Numbered from the stretch's first letter, positions 6,202 to 16,057 are shown. The stretch: DNA of 16,975 bases from Methanobacterium sp. (GCA_003166335.1 PMWA01000026.1:13879-30853); one strand, 5' to 3'. Translations and numbers: made by a program. The notes: a model not told the origin generated them from the letters alone.

Positions 6202-6233
6202 AGAATATAAATTTATAAAAAAGGTATGTGATT

Positions 6234-6692
6234 ATGAGATGTGAGATTTGCGGTAAAAAAGTGGTTGGAACACCTGTTAGGGTTAAAATTGAAGGTTCAG
6301 TTATGCAAACTTGTCAGGAATGTTCAAAATTTGGTAAAGTTCAAAAAGAACCTCAAAGAGCGATTAGAAAAAGAACTCCTCCGCGACGTCCTCGGTATAA
6401 GGAGCCTTCAAATGAGGTTTTAGAGGATTTCAATACAGTTATACGTAAGGCCCGAGAGAAGATGGGATGGTCTAGGGAAGATTTGGCTGAGAAGGTTTAT
6501 GAAAAGGTTTCTGTTATAGGACGGGTAGAATCTGGGAAGATGGTTCCCGATATTAAGCTCGCCAGAAAACTGGAGAAGATTTTGAATGTGAGTCTTCTTG
6601 AGAAAGTTGAGGATGAAAATTTAGAGGATAAAGGTCCTCAAAAGATTAGAGGGGCGACTATTGGTGATATAGCTTTTATAAAAAAGAATTGA
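6234..6692 (+). CDS. mbf1: Archaeal multiprotein bridging factor aMBF1 (Zn-ribbon plus Cro/C1 HTH)
   Basis: MRCEICG...CQECSKFG zinc ribbon; HTH IRKAREKMGWSREDLAEKV.EKVSVIGRVESG; C-terminal TIGD; divergent from pan. ATG 6234 is preferred over GTG 6228. Confidence 0.95.
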   Translation: MRCEICGKKVVGTPVRVKIEGSVMQTCQECSKFGKVQKEPQRAIRKRTPPRRPRYKEPSNEVLEDFNTVIRKAREKMGWSREDLAEKVYEKVSVIGRVESGKMVPDIKLARKLEKILNVSLLEKVEDENLEDKGPQKIRGATIGDIAFIKKN

Positions 6693-6844: not shown

Positions 6845-7201
6845 TCAGGAAGTGTTTTTATGGGAATAATAACCTCTTAATGGTTTAAGATCTTTAAAAA
6901 TTTTTTCTAATTCCGAATAATCATCGTATTCACGGCTTAAAACCATGATATGTGCAGGAGGATGTATTTTCTTTACTTGCATTATGCTTTTAGTGGTATC
7001 CTCCTGCACTCTAACCATAACCACAAACTTAGTTTTTGACTTCAAATCTTGTTTTAGAACGCTTTTCATAAATTTATCAGCAATCTTAGCTTGCAGTATC
7101 CTTGGCTTTCCAATGATCTTTAATTTAGCATGTCTTTCCAGATCAGCCAATGCATTCAAGATTTTCTTATCACTATCCGCTCTAACTAAAATTAATGCCA
7201 T
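6845..7201 (-). CDS. DUF356-like small protein, last gene of the cell-wall cluster
   Basis: LILVRAD...K..NALADLERHA.L.I.GKPRI and IHPPAHI match my recollection of DUF356; AGGAG SD; 19-nt gap from the upstream gene. Confidence 0.8.
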   Translation of the reverse strand: MALILVRADSDKKILNALADLERHAKLKIIGKPRILQAKIADKFMKSVLKQDLKSKTKFVVMVRVQEDTTKSIMQVKKIHPPAHIMVLSREYDDYSELEKIFKDLKPLRGYYSHKNTS

Positions 7202-7220: not shown

Positions 7221-8519
7221 CTATAACTTTTTCCTTCTCCTTGAGAAAGAAGAGATAAGAGTACTTCTAAATAGTACTAAAACTACCATAATCAAACCTA
7301 TAGCAGTCTGTAAATTTCCAATAGTATCTAATATAGAAGAGCTTATTGGCAGATTCCAAGCTGGTGCAGTCCTACCGTTTGGAAGTGGAGTGTAGTAAAT
7401 TCCCACTTGTTTAGTGTAGGTTAAAATATGGATATCATCCGGTTCAACAGGGTTAACACCAATTAACAAACCACTACTAATGGCTTTGTTAATATCACTA
7501 GCTATTAGAGTAGCATCGAAGCCATTTTTACTTACAGAAGATTCAACTACTGATTGGGTGGTATCAATAATACCGGGGTCGTCAGTTCCGTAGGTAGTAA
7601 CGCTAGCATTGGTTGGTTCAACTGTTATATAATGTTCAAGAGCTTGATAAGCGTATACTACTGTTAAAGGATTATTATCAATAGGGGAAGTAGTGTAACT
7701 ATCAGCATCAGGATAAGTAATACCCCAACCACTGATATTATCAACTTTCTCAAAGGGTTGATCCATCGGGAAACCTGTTTGATTTAATTGGGATGGTGTA
7801 AACGTATCTTCAGTGGATATACCCGAATCCAGATTGATACCTCCTCCACCATACTGTTCACCTGATTGACTGGCCACCATTTTAAAAGTATTAGCCAATA
7901 TTTGTGTAGCTGGGTAACCATCCCTAATTTGTTCACCAATCATTTCAGAAGCAGCCAGTCCCACTGCAGTGGTATTATCGGGTTGAGGATTACCTGGTGT
8001 GTGTAGCAAGTGAAGTACTGCTCCTTTGGTGCCGGGCGGTAATACACCTATTTCTCCGGTAGTGGGAGTGATGGTAATGGTACCATCATTTGCAACTTCG
8101 ATTAACCAATTACCAGATGTACCGGCTATTGCTGCTCCAATGGTTGGACCTCCAATCACTAATCTCTGCCCAGAGAAACTATTAGCAATACTAGCAGCGG
8201 ATTCTGTGGTAGCTCCTGATTTAAGTGCATTAATACATTGTACTATCATTTGCAACCTAGGTGTGTCATTTACAACAGTACTAGCACCAGAAGTATCCGC
8301 ACCACCGGATAGGATTGCAAACTTATCTTGAGGTGAGTTCATGAAGGTTGATTCGAACATGTTACTGTCAAAGGACATACTACCTGCGGCTGCACCGTTA
8401 GGATCCTGGCCAGTGGGATCAGTTATGATTATTACGTTACAAGTTGCAGCGGCAGCATTCATCATAACTAAGGTAGTAATAAATAGCACCAGAAGTCGTG
8501 CTATATTCACATTCCGCAT
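7221..8519 (-). CDS. Exported, C-terminally membrane-anchored protein; putative Ntn-hydrolase fold
   Basis: Signal peptide (MRNVNIARLLVLFITTLVMMNAAAA), a large T/S/G/N-rich ectodomain, and a C-terminal TM (AIGLIMVVLVLF) followed by a basic tail (RRRKKL). Start is ATG 8519 (GGTGGTGA SD) or GTG 8525, which overlaps the upstream stop. The fold call is an inference; the CDS itself is solid. Confidence 0.8.
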   Translation of the reverse strand: MRNVNIARLLVLFITTLVMMNAAAATCNVIIITDPTGQDPNGAAAGSMSFDSNMFESTFMNSPQDKFAILSGGADTSGASTVVNDTPRLQMIVQCINALKSGATTESAASIANSFSGQRLVIGGPTIGAAIAGTSGNWLIEVANDGTITITPTTGEIGVLPPGTKGAVLHLLHTPGNPQPDNTTAVGLAASEMIGEQIRDGYPATQILANTFKMVASQSGEQYGGGGINLDSGISTEDTFTPSQLNQTGFPMDQPFEKVDNISGWGITYPDADSYTTSPIDNNPLTVVYAYQALEHYITVEPTNASVTTYGTDDPGIIDTTQSVVESSVSKNGFDATLIASDINKAISSGLLIGVNPVEPDDIHILTYTKQVGIYYTPLPNGRTAPAWNLPISSSILDTIGNLQTAIGLIMVVLVLFRSTLISSFSRRRKKL

Positions 8520-8521
8520 GG

Positions 8522-8944
8522 TCACTTCACCACCACAGATGACCAGTCTTCGATTACATTCACAGTTACAATGCCTGTTTGATTATCAACTGTAATACTA
8601 GCAGCGGTTATGGGGTACATTGTTGTACCAGGATATGCTGACAGAGTTGCAGCTTGCTCTGCGTTTGTTATGGCTTCACTTAAGGGAAGCCTAGTTTTGC
8701 TGGTAACTAAGGTATCACCATCAATGTAACTTCCTTCTCTGAAGCCTTCATTAGCTACATTAGCTTTTATAACATCTGTTGGTTCTATATCGTTTCCTTC
8801 TATTATAACTCCCGATATGGGTACTCCTTCATTTATTCCTGGTGAGGAAGCGTAAGCGGTGTAAGTCATAAAACGTCCTGATAAAATAAGTATGAAGGCC
8901 AGTATGAGAATTATTAAAGTGTCTCTTCTAACTTTTATAAACAT
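8522..8944 (-). CDS. Single-pass membrane protein with a POTRA-like (FtsQ/DivIB-type) extracytoplasmic domain
   Basis: Short basic N-tail, one TM (LIILILAFILILSG), then PISGVIIEGN...TDVI...and a closing strand GIVTVNVIED, matching the POTRA pattern I.xI.I.GN....V.V.E; GAGGAG SD. Confidence 0.7.
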   Translation of the reverse strand: MFIKVRRDTLIILILAFILILSGRFMTYTAYASSPGINEGVPISGVIIEGNDIEPTDVIKANVANEGFREGSYIDGDTLVTSKTRLPLSEAITNAEQAATLSAYPGTTMYPITAASITVDNQTGIVTVNVIEDWSSVVVK

Positions 8945-9127: not shown

Positions 9128-10696
9128 TTAAAATAAATAACGTGATTTTTTATAAATATCTTCTTTATATTTAAAGGCGGCTTCACCGATACAAACAACA
9201 GCAGGTACGTCACATTCTAGTGCTTTTTCCAATCCACTTATTACCTGCTCTAAATTAGCTCCTAATGTTCGTTTTTTAAATTCTCGAGGATTTTTAGTAG
9301 TTAAAAGGATTTTTTCAGACGTCATAGATTCCATAAGTTTATCCGCAGCTTTTCGAGAGTAAAAAGAAGCAGGAATTATAAAATCAGCATTTTCTAGACA
9401 TTTATTTAAAATGTTAATATCACCTGTTTCACCTGATTCTGATGAAACAGTTATAACAACTGCAATTCGTCCATGAATCTTACGCAATTCCCGGAGCACG
9501 GTTTCCACTCCTCCCGGGTTATGAGCATAATCTATTATCACTTCTTTACCCTTACAATAACCAATATAATCAAGCCGCCCGGGCACGCCTTTAAAACATT
9601 CTACAACAGTTAAAATTTCATTAATCGGTATATCCAGGAATTCTATCGCTGCTGTTATCGCGCCTAAGATATTGTAAATATTATGAAGTCCCACGATTGA
9701 TGTATGTACATTAAAAACATCTTCGGGTGTGTGTAGTATGAAACCATCCTTATCTATGGCCGTGGCAAGATAATCAGGCTCAACCCTCTCCACCCCACAT
9801 TCGCAGCGATAATAACCCATTCCGGATATAGTTTCCTCTACAATGATTTCTCTTCCACAACAGCATAATTTTTTATTTTCAACTGTCTCCTTATAATCCA
9901 CTCCAAATCTAATAATATGGCCAGTTATATCAGAAGGAAGATTATTAATTAAACCTGTTATTGTAGGGTCATCCGCATTTATGATTAACAGTTTATTTTT
10001 AAGATAATCTACAAATTCACTTTTTATAGCAGCGTAACTGAGAAAATCTTGATGATTTGGCATGTGATCTGGAGTGATATTGGTTATTATACCGCATGAT
10101 GGTTCACAACGTTCCAATATAAATTTCAAGTCTCCTGGAACACCGAACGTACCGGTTTCGAGAATGGCTACATCTCCTTGTAATCTGCACTGTAATGGTG
10201 GTATATAATCAATATTACCCTGTAATTCTTTGAAACCATGCTCTGTGGGAGTAATTCCGTAGTAATTGCATATATGTTTCAAGAGAGTGGTAGTAGTGGT
10301 TTTACCATTAGTGCCGGTTATGCAAAGCACGGGTTTATCCGGCTTGATCATATTAAGTATATCATCAACTTCTAAGACTTCAGATCTACCATGTATTAAC
10401 TTTTTATAAAGATTAGAATTCTTGGATAAGCTGGGGGGTGGAATTATATAATCTGATTCTTTAAAAAAATTTTCAGGATGCCCTGCAAGGTAAAGAGGTA
10501 AGTCATAATTCTCGAAAGTGTATTTGAATTTACATTGAGCTGCTGACTTATAATCAGTGCCTATAACTTTTAAATCATGTTCAAAGAGTACACGAGCTAT
10601 CAAATTCCCGACTACTCCACAAACACCTATTACTCCATAAATAGGAGGACATGGTTCTATCAGAGGTACAATGTCATCTTTTTTATTGCTGTTCAT
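9128..10696 (-). CDS. Pseudomurein Mur-type peptide ligase, MurC-like, with a Cys-rich Zn-ribbon insertion
   Basis: N-terminal Rossmann [10 protein letters not shown]...VIGTD, P-loop [52 protein letters not shown] overlap with the upstream ligase. Confidence 0.9.
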
Positions 10697-12108
10697 TGTT
10701 TTCTACAACCTTTCTCAAGGCCAGATTTCATTTTTTGCTTCAACTCATCATAATTGGTTATAGCTCCAGGACCTACATGTAAAATGGTGTCACCAGGCTT
10801 TGAATTTTCAATGGCAAGCTTTCCAGCAGTTATCATGTCTTTTGTAGCGATTTTAATGCAGTTTGAATTATGGATGCCTCTTAAAACTTCATGGGCTGCA
10901 TTCATATCTACTACTCCTGTGGTTTCATTATATCCACTGGAAATGATAATATCAGCATATTCACCCACTACATTACCTATTTTGTATTTATCTCTAATAG
11001 TTGTGGTGTCAGGGTTATCGATTAAAACTATTAATTCTGGGTTAGAAAACTGTTCTAGGGTGGCAACTAATCCTTCCGGTACAAAAGCAGCATCAAAATG
11101 AATTTCTCGGCCACAATAATTTCCTATATATTCTAAATGTCCTGGAATCCCTTTGAATTGTATTAAACCTTGCTTAATCGTGTTTTCACTTAAACCATAA
11201 GTTAAAGCCACTGCTGCAGAGGCTATTGAATTTTCGAAATAGTAACCCATTAATTTAAAGGTTGATTCAAATGTACCATGACTATTGATTAATTCATAAT
11301 CAATCTGGATTCTCTGATTGTTAAGGTAACCAGAAACGTCACATTCAAATTCATTAATCGTTTTAGTTTTCCGGGTGCAATAATATATTGTATCATCCCT
11401 TAAAGGTTCTAGATATTCTTTGCATAAGGGGGTGGAAATTAAGGTTTCACTTGAATTAGCTATAAAAAGCTTACGCTGAGCATATTTTTCGACTGATCCC
11501 TCGAATTCATCAAGATGATCTTTATAAATATTAGTGAGTACTCCTATTTTCAGTTTAACCTGTGACATTAGTCTGGAAGTACCGTGGGGTAGTTCAAAAA
11601 TTGCTATATCATTTTGGTGATGATAATCTTTGATTATTCCGTCTATAATTACTTCACTTAGGAGATTACCATGGCGTGATGAACACTTCCACACTTTATA
11701 TCCTCCACTTTCAAATATTTGGGAGATGATGTGCGTTGTGCTGGTTTTACCTAGGGTTCCTGTAACTCCAATTATATCTATATTAATGATGTCATCGATT
11801 ATATGGGATATATCCCTATGATTAATTAATTTCACCCCATTAAGATTCAAAATTTTTCTTATCAATGAATTTGTAGGTATTGTGGGGGATATATAAGCTG
11901 AATTGATATATTTAAGTTCAGGAGTGTAATTTGGGCCTAAATTTAATTCTATTCCTTCTTTTTTCATTTGATTAAGGATTTTCTGAGTTTTTTTGGGGAA
12001 TTCTTCTAGTTTTTTCTGATCAGTGAGTACAACTTTATGATCAATGTAATTCAGAATCCTGGCTACGGGGCGCCCGGCGTTGCCAGCCCCTATTACTATG
12101 CAATTCAT
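10693..12108 (-). CDS. Pseudomurein Mur-type peptide ligase, MurD-like
   Basis: MurD-like N-terminus [13 protein letters not shown]...LTD, YISPTIP, P-loop [29 protein letters not shown]. Confidence 0.88.
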
Positions 12109-12390: not shown

Positions 12391-13815
12391 TTAACATACC
12401 TCAATCTTCTTTAAAACTTCTTTAGCGGGATCCATTCCCTGAGCACCGATTAATAGAATAGTATCATCTTTTTTAGAGGATTTAATAACATATTTTAACG
12501 CATCAAACAATTCTTCATAGAATATGTAATTTAAATCATTCTTCTCAAGGGTTTCTGTAAATATCTTTTTTTCAGAGGGTTGAACCTTATTAGCCTGATC
12601 CACCATCTCCACGCTACTAGTGATTACCAGATGATGTTTAATGCCTTTTAAACTCTTAGCAATAGCTTCAGCATTTATTTGATTTATAGGTACACCACGA
12701 GAGCCGCGAATAGCCGATACAAGATATAAATCTCCACTAGCCATCTGCGCAGCACTTTTTATAGTAAACCTTATACCATCAGGATTATGAGCAAAGTCAT
12801 CAATTATAAGTGGACTTTCATATAGAACACTAAACCTCCGATTCAGGGCCTTATATGATGAAACTGCCTTCTTAATAATATCAAGATCAATTTTTAATGC
12901 CATAGCCACCCCCACAGCAGCTAGAGTGTTCTGAATAAAATGAGGACTTTTAAAAGGTAATTCATCTTTACTCAGTATAAGTCTTCCCTTATGATATATC
13001 CCATCATCTAAAAATTCTAACTCGGATCCATAGCCATAAAATACCACTTCAGCAGAAGACGGGACTAAGTCACCCATACTTCTTATAAGAGGATCATTAT
13101 AATTTAAAATAACATAATCTCCCTTAAATCCTTTAAGTGCTCCTAATACTTCATTAAATGATTCTTCAATAGAATTCACCAAACCAATATGATCCAAAGA
13201 AACGTTGGTGAACACTAAAATCTTTGGATTAATGGTAGAAGTCATGAGTTGGGCGTGATTTTTCATGATTCTATCCATCCATCCCTGAACTTCAGAAACC
13301 TCTACTACCATAGCCTCTATCCTACCCGGGAATTCTGCAATCTGTTTAGCCACCATAGGATCAATAAGAGTGTTAAATTCTGATTGAGAATCAGTATTAG
13401 TGTAAGTAGTGTAACCTGCCTCTCGTAAAATGGTGTAGATCATATGGGTGGTGGTTGATTTACCATTAGTACCAGTCACTACTACGCGTGTAGCATTATC
13501 TGAGAAGTTTTCTATTGACCATTTAAGTGCAAATGCATTGGCTAATTCTATTTTATCACAGATTATTAAAGGTAAACCAAGTAATTCAGCAGTTTTAAGA
13601 GCATTTTCAGAAGGATTTTGAGTTATAATACATGAAACACCTTTTTTAAATGCAATTTCAACACCGATTTCATCTATTCGATGTCTTATAACCACATCAT
13701 CCTTCTTTGAATCTTTTAAAATGTTAAATATACCATTTATATGGATATTATCTCCAATAAGTTCCCCATTAACATGATTCGCCAAATCAAGTGTGTTTAA
13801 TTCTGTTTTAACCAT
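12391..13815 (-). CDS. Pseudomurein Mur-type peptide ligase, MurE/F-like
   Basis: MurE/F-type N-domain (LANHVNGELIG), P-loop VTGTNGKSTT, VVEVSE, FTNVSLDH, LNYNDP, IDDFAHNPDG, DTILLIGA; 6 nt downstream of the MraY-like gene. Confidence 0.9.
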   Translation of the reverse strand: MVKTELNTLDLANHVNGELIGDNIHINGIFNILKDSKKDDVVIRHRIDEIGVEIAFKKGVSCIITQNPSENALKTAELLGLPLIICDKIELANAFALKWSIENFSDNATRVVVTGTNGKSTTTHMIYTILREAGYTTYTNTDSQSEFNTLIDPMVAKQIAEFPGRIEAMVVEVSEVQGWMDRIMKNHAQLMTSTINPKILVFTNVSLDHIGLVNSIEESFNEVLGALKGFKGDYVILNYNDPLIRSMGDLVPSSAEVVFYGYGSELEFLDDGIYHKGRLILSKDELPFKSPHFIQNTLAAVGVAMALKIDLDIIKKAVSSYKALNRRFSVLYESPLIIDDFAHNPDGIRFTIKSAAQMASGDLYLVSAIRGSRGVPINQINAEAIAKSLKGIKHHLVITSSVEMVDQANKVQPSEKKIFTETLEKNDLNYIFYEELFDALKYVIKSSKKDDTILLIGAQGMDPAKEVLKKIEVC

Positions 13816-13821
13816 TCTTAA

Positions 13822-14907
13822 TCACCGGAAGAAATGGTAAAAATATAGGGCGACTAAACAAATTATTAATGTAGCTAACCAATACGTGAGAACTATTTTA
13901 GTTTCAGACCATCCTTTATGATTCAATGTATGGTGTAATGGTTCTACTTCTAAATTTATGATACCTGCACGATGCATAAGACTGATTATAACGGAAATTA
14001 TAGGCACTGCTAGTACCACTACTGCAAAAATAATTACATCCCCCATTATAGCTGCAGCAGCATATAAACCTCCCAGAGCGAATGATCCAACATCACCCAT
14101 GAATATAGATGCCGGTATTTTATTGTACACTAAAAATCCGAAGCAAACTCCTCCAATAGCCATGAAAATTACTGAAGTATCCAATCGACCAGTTAGAATT
14201 GAGAATACTGCACAAGCTACTGAAGCCATTCCTAATATTCCTGATGCTAAACCATCCATTCCATCTATTAAATTAACGGCATTAATGGATCCAACCACAC
14301 CGACAATGGTTATGGGGATAGCTAATAATCCAACGTAAAAACCGCTTAAAGTGGTGGGTATAGCTCCAGACACTATCAAAAATAGTGATACCATAATTTG
14401 GGCTAATATTTTATTCTTTTCTTTTAATTCACTCTTGATAGGAATTTCGCGGATAACTTTTATTTTATTTTGACTTAAAAGTTCATCAAGCTGTTTCTTA
14501 GCTTTAGAAGTTATAATTCTTGCCTCATGACCTGGTTTTAAGGCTATCATACCTATTTCTACTTGTTTAGAATAAATATTTTGAACTACCTTCTGAAATT
14601 CTTTGATTCTAAGGCCGATAAGGTCATCTAGCAATCCTATAACTGCAGCCACTACCATTAATCCAACTGTTAAAACTACGAGTTTATTTTGGTAATATAA
14701 ACTGAGGATTAATAACATTCCTAAAATTATTGCTAAACCACCCATTGTGGGTGTTCCTTTTTTGTGACTGTGCTCTGATACTATGGGATTATCGGTTATA
14801 CTAGCTTTTAATAATGCTAATCGGACGTAAGGTGTGAAAAAAGCCACTGCCACAAACGCTATTATAAAAGGAATTATTGAGTTTAATAATCCCAAGTTAA
14901 GACTCAA
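13822..14907 (-). CDS. mraY: MraY-like polyprenyl-phosphate sugar-phosphate transferase (glycosyltransferase family 4)
   Basis: Motifs HKKGTPTMGG, GLLDD, NAVNLIDGMDGLA, IFMGDVGS, PLHH, W.E.KIV; multiple TM helices; TTG start. Confidence 0.92.
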   Translation of the reverse strand: MSLNLGLLNSIIPFIIAFVAVAFFTPYVRLALLKASITDNPIVSEHSHKKGTPTMGGLAIILGMLLILSLYYQNKLVVLTVGLMVVAAVIGLLDDLIGLRIKEFQKVVQNIYSKQVEIGMIALKPGHEARIITSKAKKQLDELLSQNKIKVIREIPIKSELKEKNKILAQIMVSLFLIVSGAIPTTLSGFYVGLLAIPITIVGVVGSINAVNLIDGMDGLASGILGMASVACAVFSILTGRLDTSVIFMAIGGVCFGFLVYNKIPASIFMGDVGSFALGGLYAAAAIMGDVIIFAVVVLAVPIISVIISLMHRAGIINLEVEPLHHTLNHKGWSETKIVLTYWLATLIICLVALYFYHFFR

Positions 14908-14914
14908 ATAATCA

Positions 14915-16057
14915 CTACTCCATTATTTTAAGATTTTTCACAATTTCAAATGAATTAGATAGATTTTCTGATCTAATTGTTATTCTACATGCTTTATCAG
15001 GTCCATGGATTATCCATGGTTTATCTGAAGTAAATATGCGGTTTTTATGATCATTATTATTCTGTGAAGGATTTTGAATTAGATTATTTTTATTTAAGGA
15101 TAATGACATTTCTAAAGCGTTGTATTGTTTGATTTCTCTTTCAATTATACGAGGTTTCCATTCGCCCATTGCCATGTTAACTAGTTGCTGCATAGGGTTT
15201 ATATTTGATGAGCTGAAAGTCAGAAACCTAGTACCACTAGGTCTAGTGTTCATCTCCAATGTATTTATTTGTTTTGTTTCTTCGCTAAATATAAATTCTA
15301 TTTCAGTGGTTCCATTTGCATCAAGTTTATCAGTAATGTTTTTAGCTATTTTCATGAGTTTTTGATTATTTAAATTTTCAAGATTAGCTGGTGCAGTTCT
15401 GATTTTATTTAAGGGATGAGTTCCTTCTAAAGTTGTATCACCTTTATATACACTCACTAAGGGTACAGACTTATTTTTCCATCTTAATACTTCCACTGAG
15501 ACTTCTGCACCTTTTAAAAAATCTTCCATCATTGCTTGAGAATATATTCCAAAATATGATTCTATATCTTCGGGGGATAAAGCGATTTTAACGCCAACAC
15601 CACCCTGGCCTTCAGCCTGTTTCAGAACGGTTGGAAATCTTAATCTATATTTAGAGGATTCGTACTGTTTTTTGGAAATTTCAATGGATCCGGGGGTTTT
15701 TATATTATTTTTTATTAAAAAATTCTTTGTTTTAAATTTATTTATGGAAATTTCTGTAGCATTTATTCCTGAAGCAATTACGGGTAGGTTATAATCCTTC
15801 TCAAGCTTCTCTTTCATTTTAGCTACTTCAAGAAGCGGTTTATCAATACCTATAAGGGGTACTACTGCATCAACATCTTCAGATAAAGCTATATTTATCG
15901 GATGATCCATTCCTCTGGGAACTATATGATACTCATCAGCTAATTTTAGATTTGAAGAATTAGGGTTGGATTCTGATAAAATGGTTGTAACTCCCCGGGA
16001 TTGGGCATACAATGCCACTTCATCAAAGAGTCTTGCCCCAATAAATAAGATTTTCAT
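14915..16057 (-). CDS. ATP-grasp ligase (CarB/biotin-carboxylase-related) of the pseudomurein cluster
   Basis: Motifs NKFKTK.FL....I.TP, FPTVLKQAEGQGGVGV, EDFLKGAEVSVE and LEMNTRPSG; 7 nt upstream of the MraY-like gene. Confidence 0.88.
   Translation of the reverse strand: MKILFIGARLFDEVALYAQSRGVTTILSESNPNSSNLKLADEYHIVPRGMDHPINIALSEDVDAVVPLIGIDKPLLEVAKMKEKLEKDYNLPVIASGINATEISINKFKTKNFLIKNNIKTPGSIEISKKQYESSKYRLRFPTVLKQAEGQGGVGVKIALSPEDIESYFGIYSQAMMEDFLKGAEVSVEVLRWKNKSVPLVSVYKGDTTLEGTHPLNKIRTAPANLENLNNQKLMKIAKNITDKLDANGTTEIEFIFSEETKQINTLEMNTRPSGTRFLTFSSSNINPMQQLVNMAMGEWKPRIIEREIKQYNALEMSLSLNKNNLIQNPSQNNNDHKNRIFTSDKPWIIHGPDKACRITIRSENLSNSFEIVKNLKIME

Follow-up and report, generated by a model that had tools for sequence, protein, structure and literature searches.

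Mfer764, a conserved protein of the pseudomurein gene cluster, is predicted to adopt an Ntn fold and is a candidate for cross-linking of the wall

Which enzyme cross-links the stem peptides of pseudomurein, and could it be encoded inside the biosynthetic gene cluster? The cross-linking enzyme has not yet been assigned, and the transglutaminase-like proteins proposed for this step are encoded outside the gene clusters. In the available text of PMC10117817, archaeal orthologues of transpeptidases or PBPs are reported as not found and transglutaminases are postulated as cross-linkers; the transglutaminase-like orthogroup OG0000044, located outside the clusters, was proposed without an assay as the best candidate (PMC11915815). 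The window analysed here, a stretch of 16,975 nucleotides from Methanobacterium sp. (GCA_003166335.1 PMWA01000026.1:13879-30853), carries next to the genes for the pseudomurein peptide ligases a minus-strand ORF at 7221-8525 (434 residues from GTG). An alternative ATG start gives 7221-8519 (-) with 432 residues, and a ribosome-binding-like run, GGTGGTGA, lies upstream of this ATG at 8519.

The ORF matched the NCBIfam model of the Mfer764 family (NF053642) over its full length with an E-value of 5e-162 and 539.2 bits. This score falls below the curated cut-off of 560 bits, as do those of six other genomes of the same sub-clade with an intact match, and the ORF is filed as a divergent Mfer764 orthologue, not as a formal member of NF053642. 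It is present in a single copy in the genome of the window, downstream of pMurE and Mfer763, and in the gene tree it is nested among the orthologues of its own genus. The order Mfer763-Mfer764-DUF356 was found in all 20 regions fetched, each time directly after the Mur ligases, so that the operon position given in an earlier note on this DNA, downstream of these ligases, held throughout. In the window, pMurC and pMurD1 (9128-12108) are located between pMurE and Mfer763, and several relatives are without one or both of them at this place. DUF356 ends the run ahead of a convergent MBF1-like gene at 6228-6692 (+). In one genome (L080-L083) Mfer764 and its neighbours are frameshifted; an assembly error is likely, because many genes of this genome are affected. 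A sigma-70 promoter scan was uninformative, the host being an archaeon. The features of the ORF and its neighbours are listed in Table 1.

Table 1. Predicted features of the Mfer764 ORF and neighbouring genes in the window
Feature	Position	Strand	Basis or remark
Predicted Sec/SPI signal peptide	8445..8519	-	25 residues from ATG 8519; Ala at -3 and -1
Thr1 of predicted mature protein, candidate N-terminal nucleophile	8442..8444	-	Invariance and structural alignment
Predicted Ntn-fold domain, mature residues 1-206	7827..8444	-	Predicted model, fold searches, conservation
Ser22-Met-Ser24, end of strand 2	8373..8381	-	Strand 18-23 in model; both Ser in 268/268
Ser46-Gly47-Gly48, after strand 4	8301..8309	-	Gly47 and Gly48 in 268/268
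Linker and zinc-ribbon-like insert, mature 207-275	7620..7826	-	Family Cys counts; weak Pfam matches
C-terminal alpha/beta domain, mature 276-368	7341..7619	-	Secondary structure of model
C-terminal membrane helix, basic tail, stop	7221..7340	-	Sequence and model
Mfer763 family protein	8522..8944	-	NF053641, 215 bits; stop overlaps Mfer764 start region
pMurC peptide ligase	9128..10696	-	NF053645, 732 bits
pMurD1 peptide ligase	10693..12108	-	NF053646, 708 bits
pMurE peptide ligase	12391..13815	-	NF053648, 722 bits
MraY-like transferase	13822..14907	-	NF053644, 503 bits
Pseudomurein ATP-grasp (Ddl-like) protein	14915..16057	-	NF053643, 524 bits
DUF356 protein	6845..7201	-	PF04009; 19 bases downstream of Mfer764, last gene of run

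The gene itself has been published. Mfer763 and Mfer764 were described as conserved membrane proteins that are always found downstream of pMurE and have no homology to annotated proteins, Mfer764 being the 'Con Pro' of pseudomurein Gene Cluster 2 (PMC10117817). In PMC11915815 it is OG0001472, without known domains; WP_013413841.1, entered under this orthogroup in Table S1, is an Mfer764 orthologue. The available texts of both studies give neither a fold nor a function for the family, and that of PMC12996149 (Cha et al.) covers only the cytoplasmic ligases. An Ntn reading of Mfer764 was not found in the literature searched, which misses most subscription papers; the Ntn fold and the catalytic hypothesis thus seem to be new.

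Two hydrophobic stretches are present in the window protein, one in the leader and one ahead of the basic tail. The leader begins with basic residues, runs through a hydrophobic stretch and ends in AAAA, and the C-terminus consists of a hydrophobic helix followed by a basic tail. The AAAA-ended leader placed before a Thr at 8442-8444, the C-terminal anchor and all of the motifs quoted in the earlier note are indeed present in the sequence. The Thr codon is ACT (residue 28 from GTG, 26 from ATG); residues are numbered here from this Thr1 of the predicted mature chain, and the NF053642 model begins one residue before it.

For the conservation analysis, 304 full-length matches were reduced to 268 distinct homologues, many of them close kin. 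Two records begin downstream of Thr1, so that 266 rows count at this end of the protein. The Thr at +1 was found in all 266 of them, Methanopyrus included, together with Asn3 (266/266), Ala at -1 (265/266) and Ala, Val, Ser or Ile at -3 (266/266). The adjacent Cys (Cys29), considered as a second possible nucleophile, did not survive the comparison: at +2 there are 116 rows with Cys, 98 with Met, 47 with Leu, three with Phe and two with Thr, and with this position variable only the Thr can be the nucleophile. Ser22, Ser24, Gly47, Gly48, Arg63, Arg94, His145, Arg174, Asp175, Glu196 and Asn204 are present in 268/268 homologues. From 56 near-invariant positions, 38 (Gly199-201 among them) are located within mature residues 1-206, and the window protein keeps all 56.

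Where the leader reaches 18 residues or more, which is so in 216 records, a basic n-region and a hydrophobic h-region are always present; the other 52 of the 268 are annotated from a shorter start. A C-terminal hydrophobic helix is present in 267/268. Many family entries (e.g. records P0200, P0125, P0174 and P0276) start at a Met inside the leader or just past Thr1, so that the signal peptide, and in some cases the candidate nucleophile as well, goes unseen. In Table S1 of PMC11915815, SignalP5 returned Sec/SPI for two of four Mfer764 orthologues and OTHER for the other two. One of the latter, WP_013413841.1, is annotated from a Met seven residues before the Thr, and the frame upstream of it encodes a hydrophobic stretch. 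This upstream region (L036:1429-1506) reads as a basic and hydrophobic leader, but none of ATG, GTG and TTG occurs at a sufficient distance upstream; an ATT codon is found there behind a purine-rich run, and Mfer763 also reads further at this place. In Mfer763, too, the residue that follows the predicted cleavage site is conserved, being Ser in 25 of 26 rows, and the invariance at +1 of Mfer764 alone is therefore weak evidence. Taken from sequence features, Mfer764 is predicted to be exported by the Sec pathway, cleaved between Ala and Thr, and held by its C-terminal helix.

The fold was predicted by AlphaFold2 for the mature chain of the window protein, starting at the Thr and using an alignment of 50 sequences. 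The model (pLDDT 83, pTM 0.71) shows in residues 1-204 the strand and helix order of the alpha-beta-beta-alpha Ntn sandwich. Foldseek gave eight matches under E 0.001, all to circularly permuted (cp) taspase-1 (E 1e-4 to 7e-4), followed at weaker E-values by PP2C domains, proteasome subunits, DUF1028 and HslV. With VIA-align against 48,161 chains, the first 20 rows were all Ntn-fold proteins, headed by the DUF1028 protein 2imh (Z 14.5, rmsd 3.3, 184 residues aligned), with cp-taspase-1, HslV (Z 12.3, model 1-205 on chain 1-171), NAAA, Anbu and proteasome subunits next in order. In a second run cp-taspase-1 (6ugk; Z 14.7, rmsd 4.7, 219 aligned) tied with 2imh, and HslV 4hnz reached Z 12.6 (rmsd 2.9, 154 aligned); Connectase was matched with Z 8.6 in the first run, and acid ceramidase, a hydrolase, is also among the closest folds. 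A PP2C phosphatase fold was rejected, as its Z is lower (9.8) and its alignment starts at residue 13.

Thr1 of the model is the first aligned residue, facing Thr1 of HslV, residue 1 of proteasome beta and residue 2 of both 2imh and 6ugk. The model starts at Thr, so its placement at the nucleophile position assumes cleavage between Ala and Thr. The structural alignments give range ends only, and inner residue equivalences were drawn from strand order. The Ntn fold suspected from the sequence is thus predicted by the model and both fold searches, with Thr1 in the nucleophile position; the link to DUF1028 also stands at the level of fold, 2imh being one of the two closest structures, and an invariant Gly47 ends the fourth strand. 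The ranking of the Ntn families is tentative, because single-chain searches handicap two-chain Ntn enzymes. The C-terminal domain (mature 276-368) had no significant sequence match in the PDB and was barely probed by the fold searches.

At the sequence level, neither the window protein nor the 50 aligned members matched PF06267, PF01112 or PF01019 in Pfam; weak zinc-ribbon matches were seen in other members. PDB searches by phmmer and by profile gave no family match, and the vWA-type matches in the ESM Atlas (0.76-0.77) were below the lead threshold. Profile alignment by hhalign, local or global, was not significant against DUF1028 (13 rows; E 0.2) or proteasome beta (five rows); its power is low, since the positive control, DUF1028 against proteasome beta, also failed to reach significance. 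With an anchored profile of 24 positions, 10 of 13 DUF1028 N-termini ranked within the best 5% of 12,000 background windows that begin with Thr, as did all three parsed GGT sequences (of seven loci) and the single asparaginase; none of five proteasome beta subunits did so. At 48 positions most Ntn N-termini were not separated from the background, the signal being mostly gone. The resemblance to DUF1028 claimed from the sequence is thus borne out over the first 24 positions and not by profile-profile comparison; it is real but slight. The case for Ntn kinship consequently rests on the predicted fold.

Mfer764 would work like an Ntn amidotransferase but belongs to none of the DUF1028, proteasome-like, asparaginase and GGT families. 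DUF1028 (SPO2555; PF06267, 2imh), an uncharacterised Thr-Ntn family, aligns from residue 1 and shares the first hairpin: Thr, hydrophobic strand, Asp-Pro, Gly, small residues and Ser. Unlike Mfer764, the members fetched are without signal peptide or membrane anchor, and their own invariant residues (Gln42, Asn116 and Asp155-x-Arg157 in alignment A2) differ; DUF1028 was not found in 61 genomes of the phylum of the window. Five of 12 fetched DUF1028 genes are located directly downstream of a gamma-glutamyltransferase-family gene (L110-L114), a hint that DUF1028 may act in gamma-glutamyl chemistry. Taspase-1 and type 2 asparaginase (PF01112), the best Foldseek and tied-best VIA-align match with Thr first in the permuted chain, carry this Thr inside a precursor that is split by autoproteolysis into two subunits. 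There the alpha subunit precedes the internal Thr, whereas the Thr of Mfer764 is preceded only by a leader of 25 residues.

The proteasome-like family (beta subunits, HslV, Anbu, Connectase) aligns with Z about 12, residue 1 on residue 1, and differs in that Mfer764 is predicted to be exported and membrane-anchored. In the proteasome Gly47 is the oxyanion residue and the catalytic triad is Thr1-Asp17-Lys33 (PMC8665760). Gly47 closes strand 4 of Mfer764 in the same way; equivalents of Asp17 and Lys33 are absent, Gly21-Ser22-x-Ser24 and Ser32-Thr33-Phe34 standing at these places in a register taken from secondary structure. The main text of a survey of 22 proteasome homologues makes no mention of Methanobacteri-, Methanopyr-, transmembrane or secreted (PMC8665760). 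Beside the alpha and beta genes a further proteasome-like gene was seen, the third (L098:1477-2466; also L097). It has helical insertions and a Thr directly behind the start Met, and may belong to the divergent homologues already described.

The GGT enzymes (PF01019), among them CapD, which anchors polymer to peptidoglycan (PMC8062742), offer a functional precedent for ATP-free transpeptidation by exported Thr-Ntn enzymes, and the GGT Thr-x-Thr after strand 2 parallels the Ser-x-Ser of Mfer764 (PMC8062742). GGTs differ in being autoprocessed two-subunit proteins of about 550 residues with a large subunit before the internal Thr, and show no sequence match; no GGT chain is among the fold matches listed for Mfer764, which does not speak against GGT, its fold being split over two chains. 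Connectase, a methanogen Ntn protein ligase, is a further precedent for Thr-Ntn transpeptidation, and a different enzyme presumably opens it (PMC7980362). Autoproteolytic self-activation is held to be a hallmark of Ntn-hydrolases (PMC9140057); Mfer764 would depart from it, the sequence suggesting signal peptidase instead.

With the NF053642 model, Mfer764 was detected in 294 of the 301 genomes of the phylum and in 222 of the 223 that are at least 90% complete, and it is present in Methanopyrus. None of 14 control genomes, including four archaea without pseudomurein, was matched. Sampling covered this phylum, Methanopyrus and these controls, with other archaeal phyla thinly represented. A phmmer search of 1.84 billion representatives gave 51 matches, mostly fragments and none distant; they carry no taxonomy, so the restriction to pseudomurein producers, named as a check in the earlier note, holds for the sets searched. 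A search for shorter stand-alone relatives of the Ntn domain gave 96 matches, all at least 41% identical and consistent with fragments. No relatives were found in viral contigs or, beyond the E 0.001 threshold, among viral folds.

On these grounds we tentatively put forward, as a real possibility somewhat short of an even chance, that Mfer764 is an exported, membrane-tethered Thr-Ntn transpeptidase that cross-links pseudomurein stem peptides. Sec export and cleavage between Ala and Thr are predicted to leave the alpha-amine of Thr1 free only outside the cell, and the C-terminal helix would keep the protein at the membrane face. No autoprocessing would be needed, because signal peptidase would free Thr1. 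The hydroxyl of Thr1, helped by its own amine and probably by Ser22/Ser24, His145 and Glu196, would attack a stem-peptide amide. By strand register in the model, Ser22/Ser24 are the likely hydroxyl partner of Thr1; Ser46-Gly47-Gly48 likely form the oxyanion hole, with Ser46-Gly47 in that role during attack. The donor bond would be either the terminal Lys-Ala bond or a gamma-glutamyl amide, and the amine of a neighbouring stem would resolve the acyl-enzyme to a Glu-Lys cross-link without ATP. Mfer763 may position Mfer764, which is no more than a lead. The wider proposal, that Mfer764 is the missing counterpart of PBPs, Ntn-fold, penicillin-insensitive and activated by signal peptidase, with Mfer763 as a POTRA partner like FtsQ/DivIB, is possible as well and slightly more doubtful.

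Cross-linking is favoured because the gene is universal, single and located inside the biosynthetic cluster, because the step is without an enzyme, and because Thr-Ntn transpeptidases exist. A common Ntn fold does not establish function, and the majority of Ntn enzymes are hydrolases. Several points stand against it: published opinion favours exported transglutaminase-like proteins (PMC10117817, PMC11915815); to this are added the two SignalP5 OTHER calls in four, the Ser at +1 of Mfer763, the lack of a sequence link to any Ntn family, the missing Asp17/Lys33 and the replacement of Arg147, Asn148, Gly156 and Arg162 in the window protein.

The same exported Thr-Ntn enzyme could instead be a hydrolase that trims stem peptides or cuts isopeptide cross-links during growth or division. 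We consider this unlikely, yet the most serious of the alternatives, as hydrolases make up its closest folds (taspase-1, HslV, proteasome beta, NAAA, acid ceramidase) and the pseudomurein wall offers gamma-Glu and epsilon-Lys amides (PMC10117817) on which such an enzyme could act; for cross-linking, transglutaminase-like proteins have already been proposed. A hydrolase fits less well with a gene that is strictly single-copy inside the biosynthetic cluster, the transglutaminase-like genes lying outside, or with the lack of any relative on viral contigs or among viral folds, where lytic enzymes might be expected. Rather more improbable is a Thr-Ntn transferase or protease with another substrate, which would either process an envelope protein or couple polymers or surface proteins to the wall. 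Connectase and CapD provide examples of such ligation and anchoring, and taspase-1 is a site-specific protease; but Mfer764 is encoded together with MraY and all of the stem-peptide ligases, which speaks for the core polymer, and the genome of the window encodes its own Connectase.

There is a small probability that Mfer764 is non-catalytic and acts together with Mfer763 and MraY in a complex for wall assembly, either as an Ntn-fold scaffold or as the subunit that binds the substrate. Inactive Ntn-fold subunits exist, e.g. proteasome alpha (PMC8665760), the canonical triad is absent from Mfer764, and conservation at +1 is also a property of Mfer763. Against a scaffold, Thr1 is never replaced by Ser or Ala in the 266 rows though all four Thr codons are used among 49 loci, and the polar residues Asn3, Ser22, Ser24, His145 and Glu196 and the Gly47-Gly48 pair are invariant. 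It is very improbable that Thr1 is never free, either because the leader stays uncleaved as an anchor or because the protein is oriented towards the cytoplasm: the OTHER calls and the L036 frame with its h-region but no usable start codon would agree with it, whereas the residues at -1 and -3, the basic tail after the C-terminal helix and a shift in composition common only to the other exported protein, Mfer763, do not.

Mfer764 is thus a universal, single-copy, predicted surface-exposed candidate within the cluster, and with one obvious catalytic residue it is testable. If the cross-linking proposal is true, PBPs and L,D-transpeptidases would be joined by another chemical route to a cross-linked wall. 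Mfer764 would then also be an Ntn enzyme that export switches on, and would offer a surface-exposed target specific to methanogens of the rumen and gut.

The window copy has the gene order, single copy and full-length match of the family, but differs from it by an insertion of eight residues, by the absence of zinc-ribbon Cys and by substitutions at Arg147, Asn148, Gly156, Ala158 and Arg162. Four of these positions, Arg147, Asn148, Gly156 and Arg162 (Arg in 253/268 homologues), are otherwise conserved, and all five are located beside His145. The four zinc-ribbon Cys are present in 78/268 homologues; 72/268 have none of them, which rules out a required zinc ribbon. In gene trees built from 12 to 18 genomes per gene (three of 20 regions were left out, two being incomplete and one frameshifted), Mfer764 of the sub-clade stands 1.37 times as far from the outgroups as that of its sisters, against ratios of 0.86-1.14 for nine neighbours. 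Mfer764 evolves faster in the sub-clade but is still constrained, as dN/dS is 0.15-0.18 (four pairs); with all 56 near-invariant residues kept, this also rules out decay into a pseudogene.

Mfer763 has an N-terminal hydrophobic leader and a putative POTRA-like domain. In a profile search it hit the POTRA region of BamA (E 3e-4), two of 26 members weakly match Pfam POTRA, and its named ESM Atlas neighbours are all POTRA (0.76-0.79, sub-threshold). FtsQ/DivIB are membrane-bound POTRA proteins of bacterial wall clusters that serve septal synthases. As a lead, Mfer763 may be a membrane-bound POTRA-like protein recalling them; that it looks POTRA-like is new.

Also new for this sub-clade are the faster Mfer764, the lost zinc-ribbon Cys and the halved Lys+Arg content of two exported proteins. 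Lys+Arg make up 3.3% of the Mfer764 ectodomain in the window (7341-8444) against 6.6% and 7.4%, and 5.0% of Mfer763 (8522-8854) against 8.5% and 10.1%. In the sub-clade the drop is confined to Mfer763 and Mfer764 and was not seen in eight cytoplasmic or membrane neighbours. It is not unique, some other lineages having 4.1-4.5%, and the shift in the sub-clade counts as one evolutionary event. The drop fits exposure of both proteins to the outside, perhaps to an acidic medium; one close relative is labelled with SPRUCE, a peatland site.
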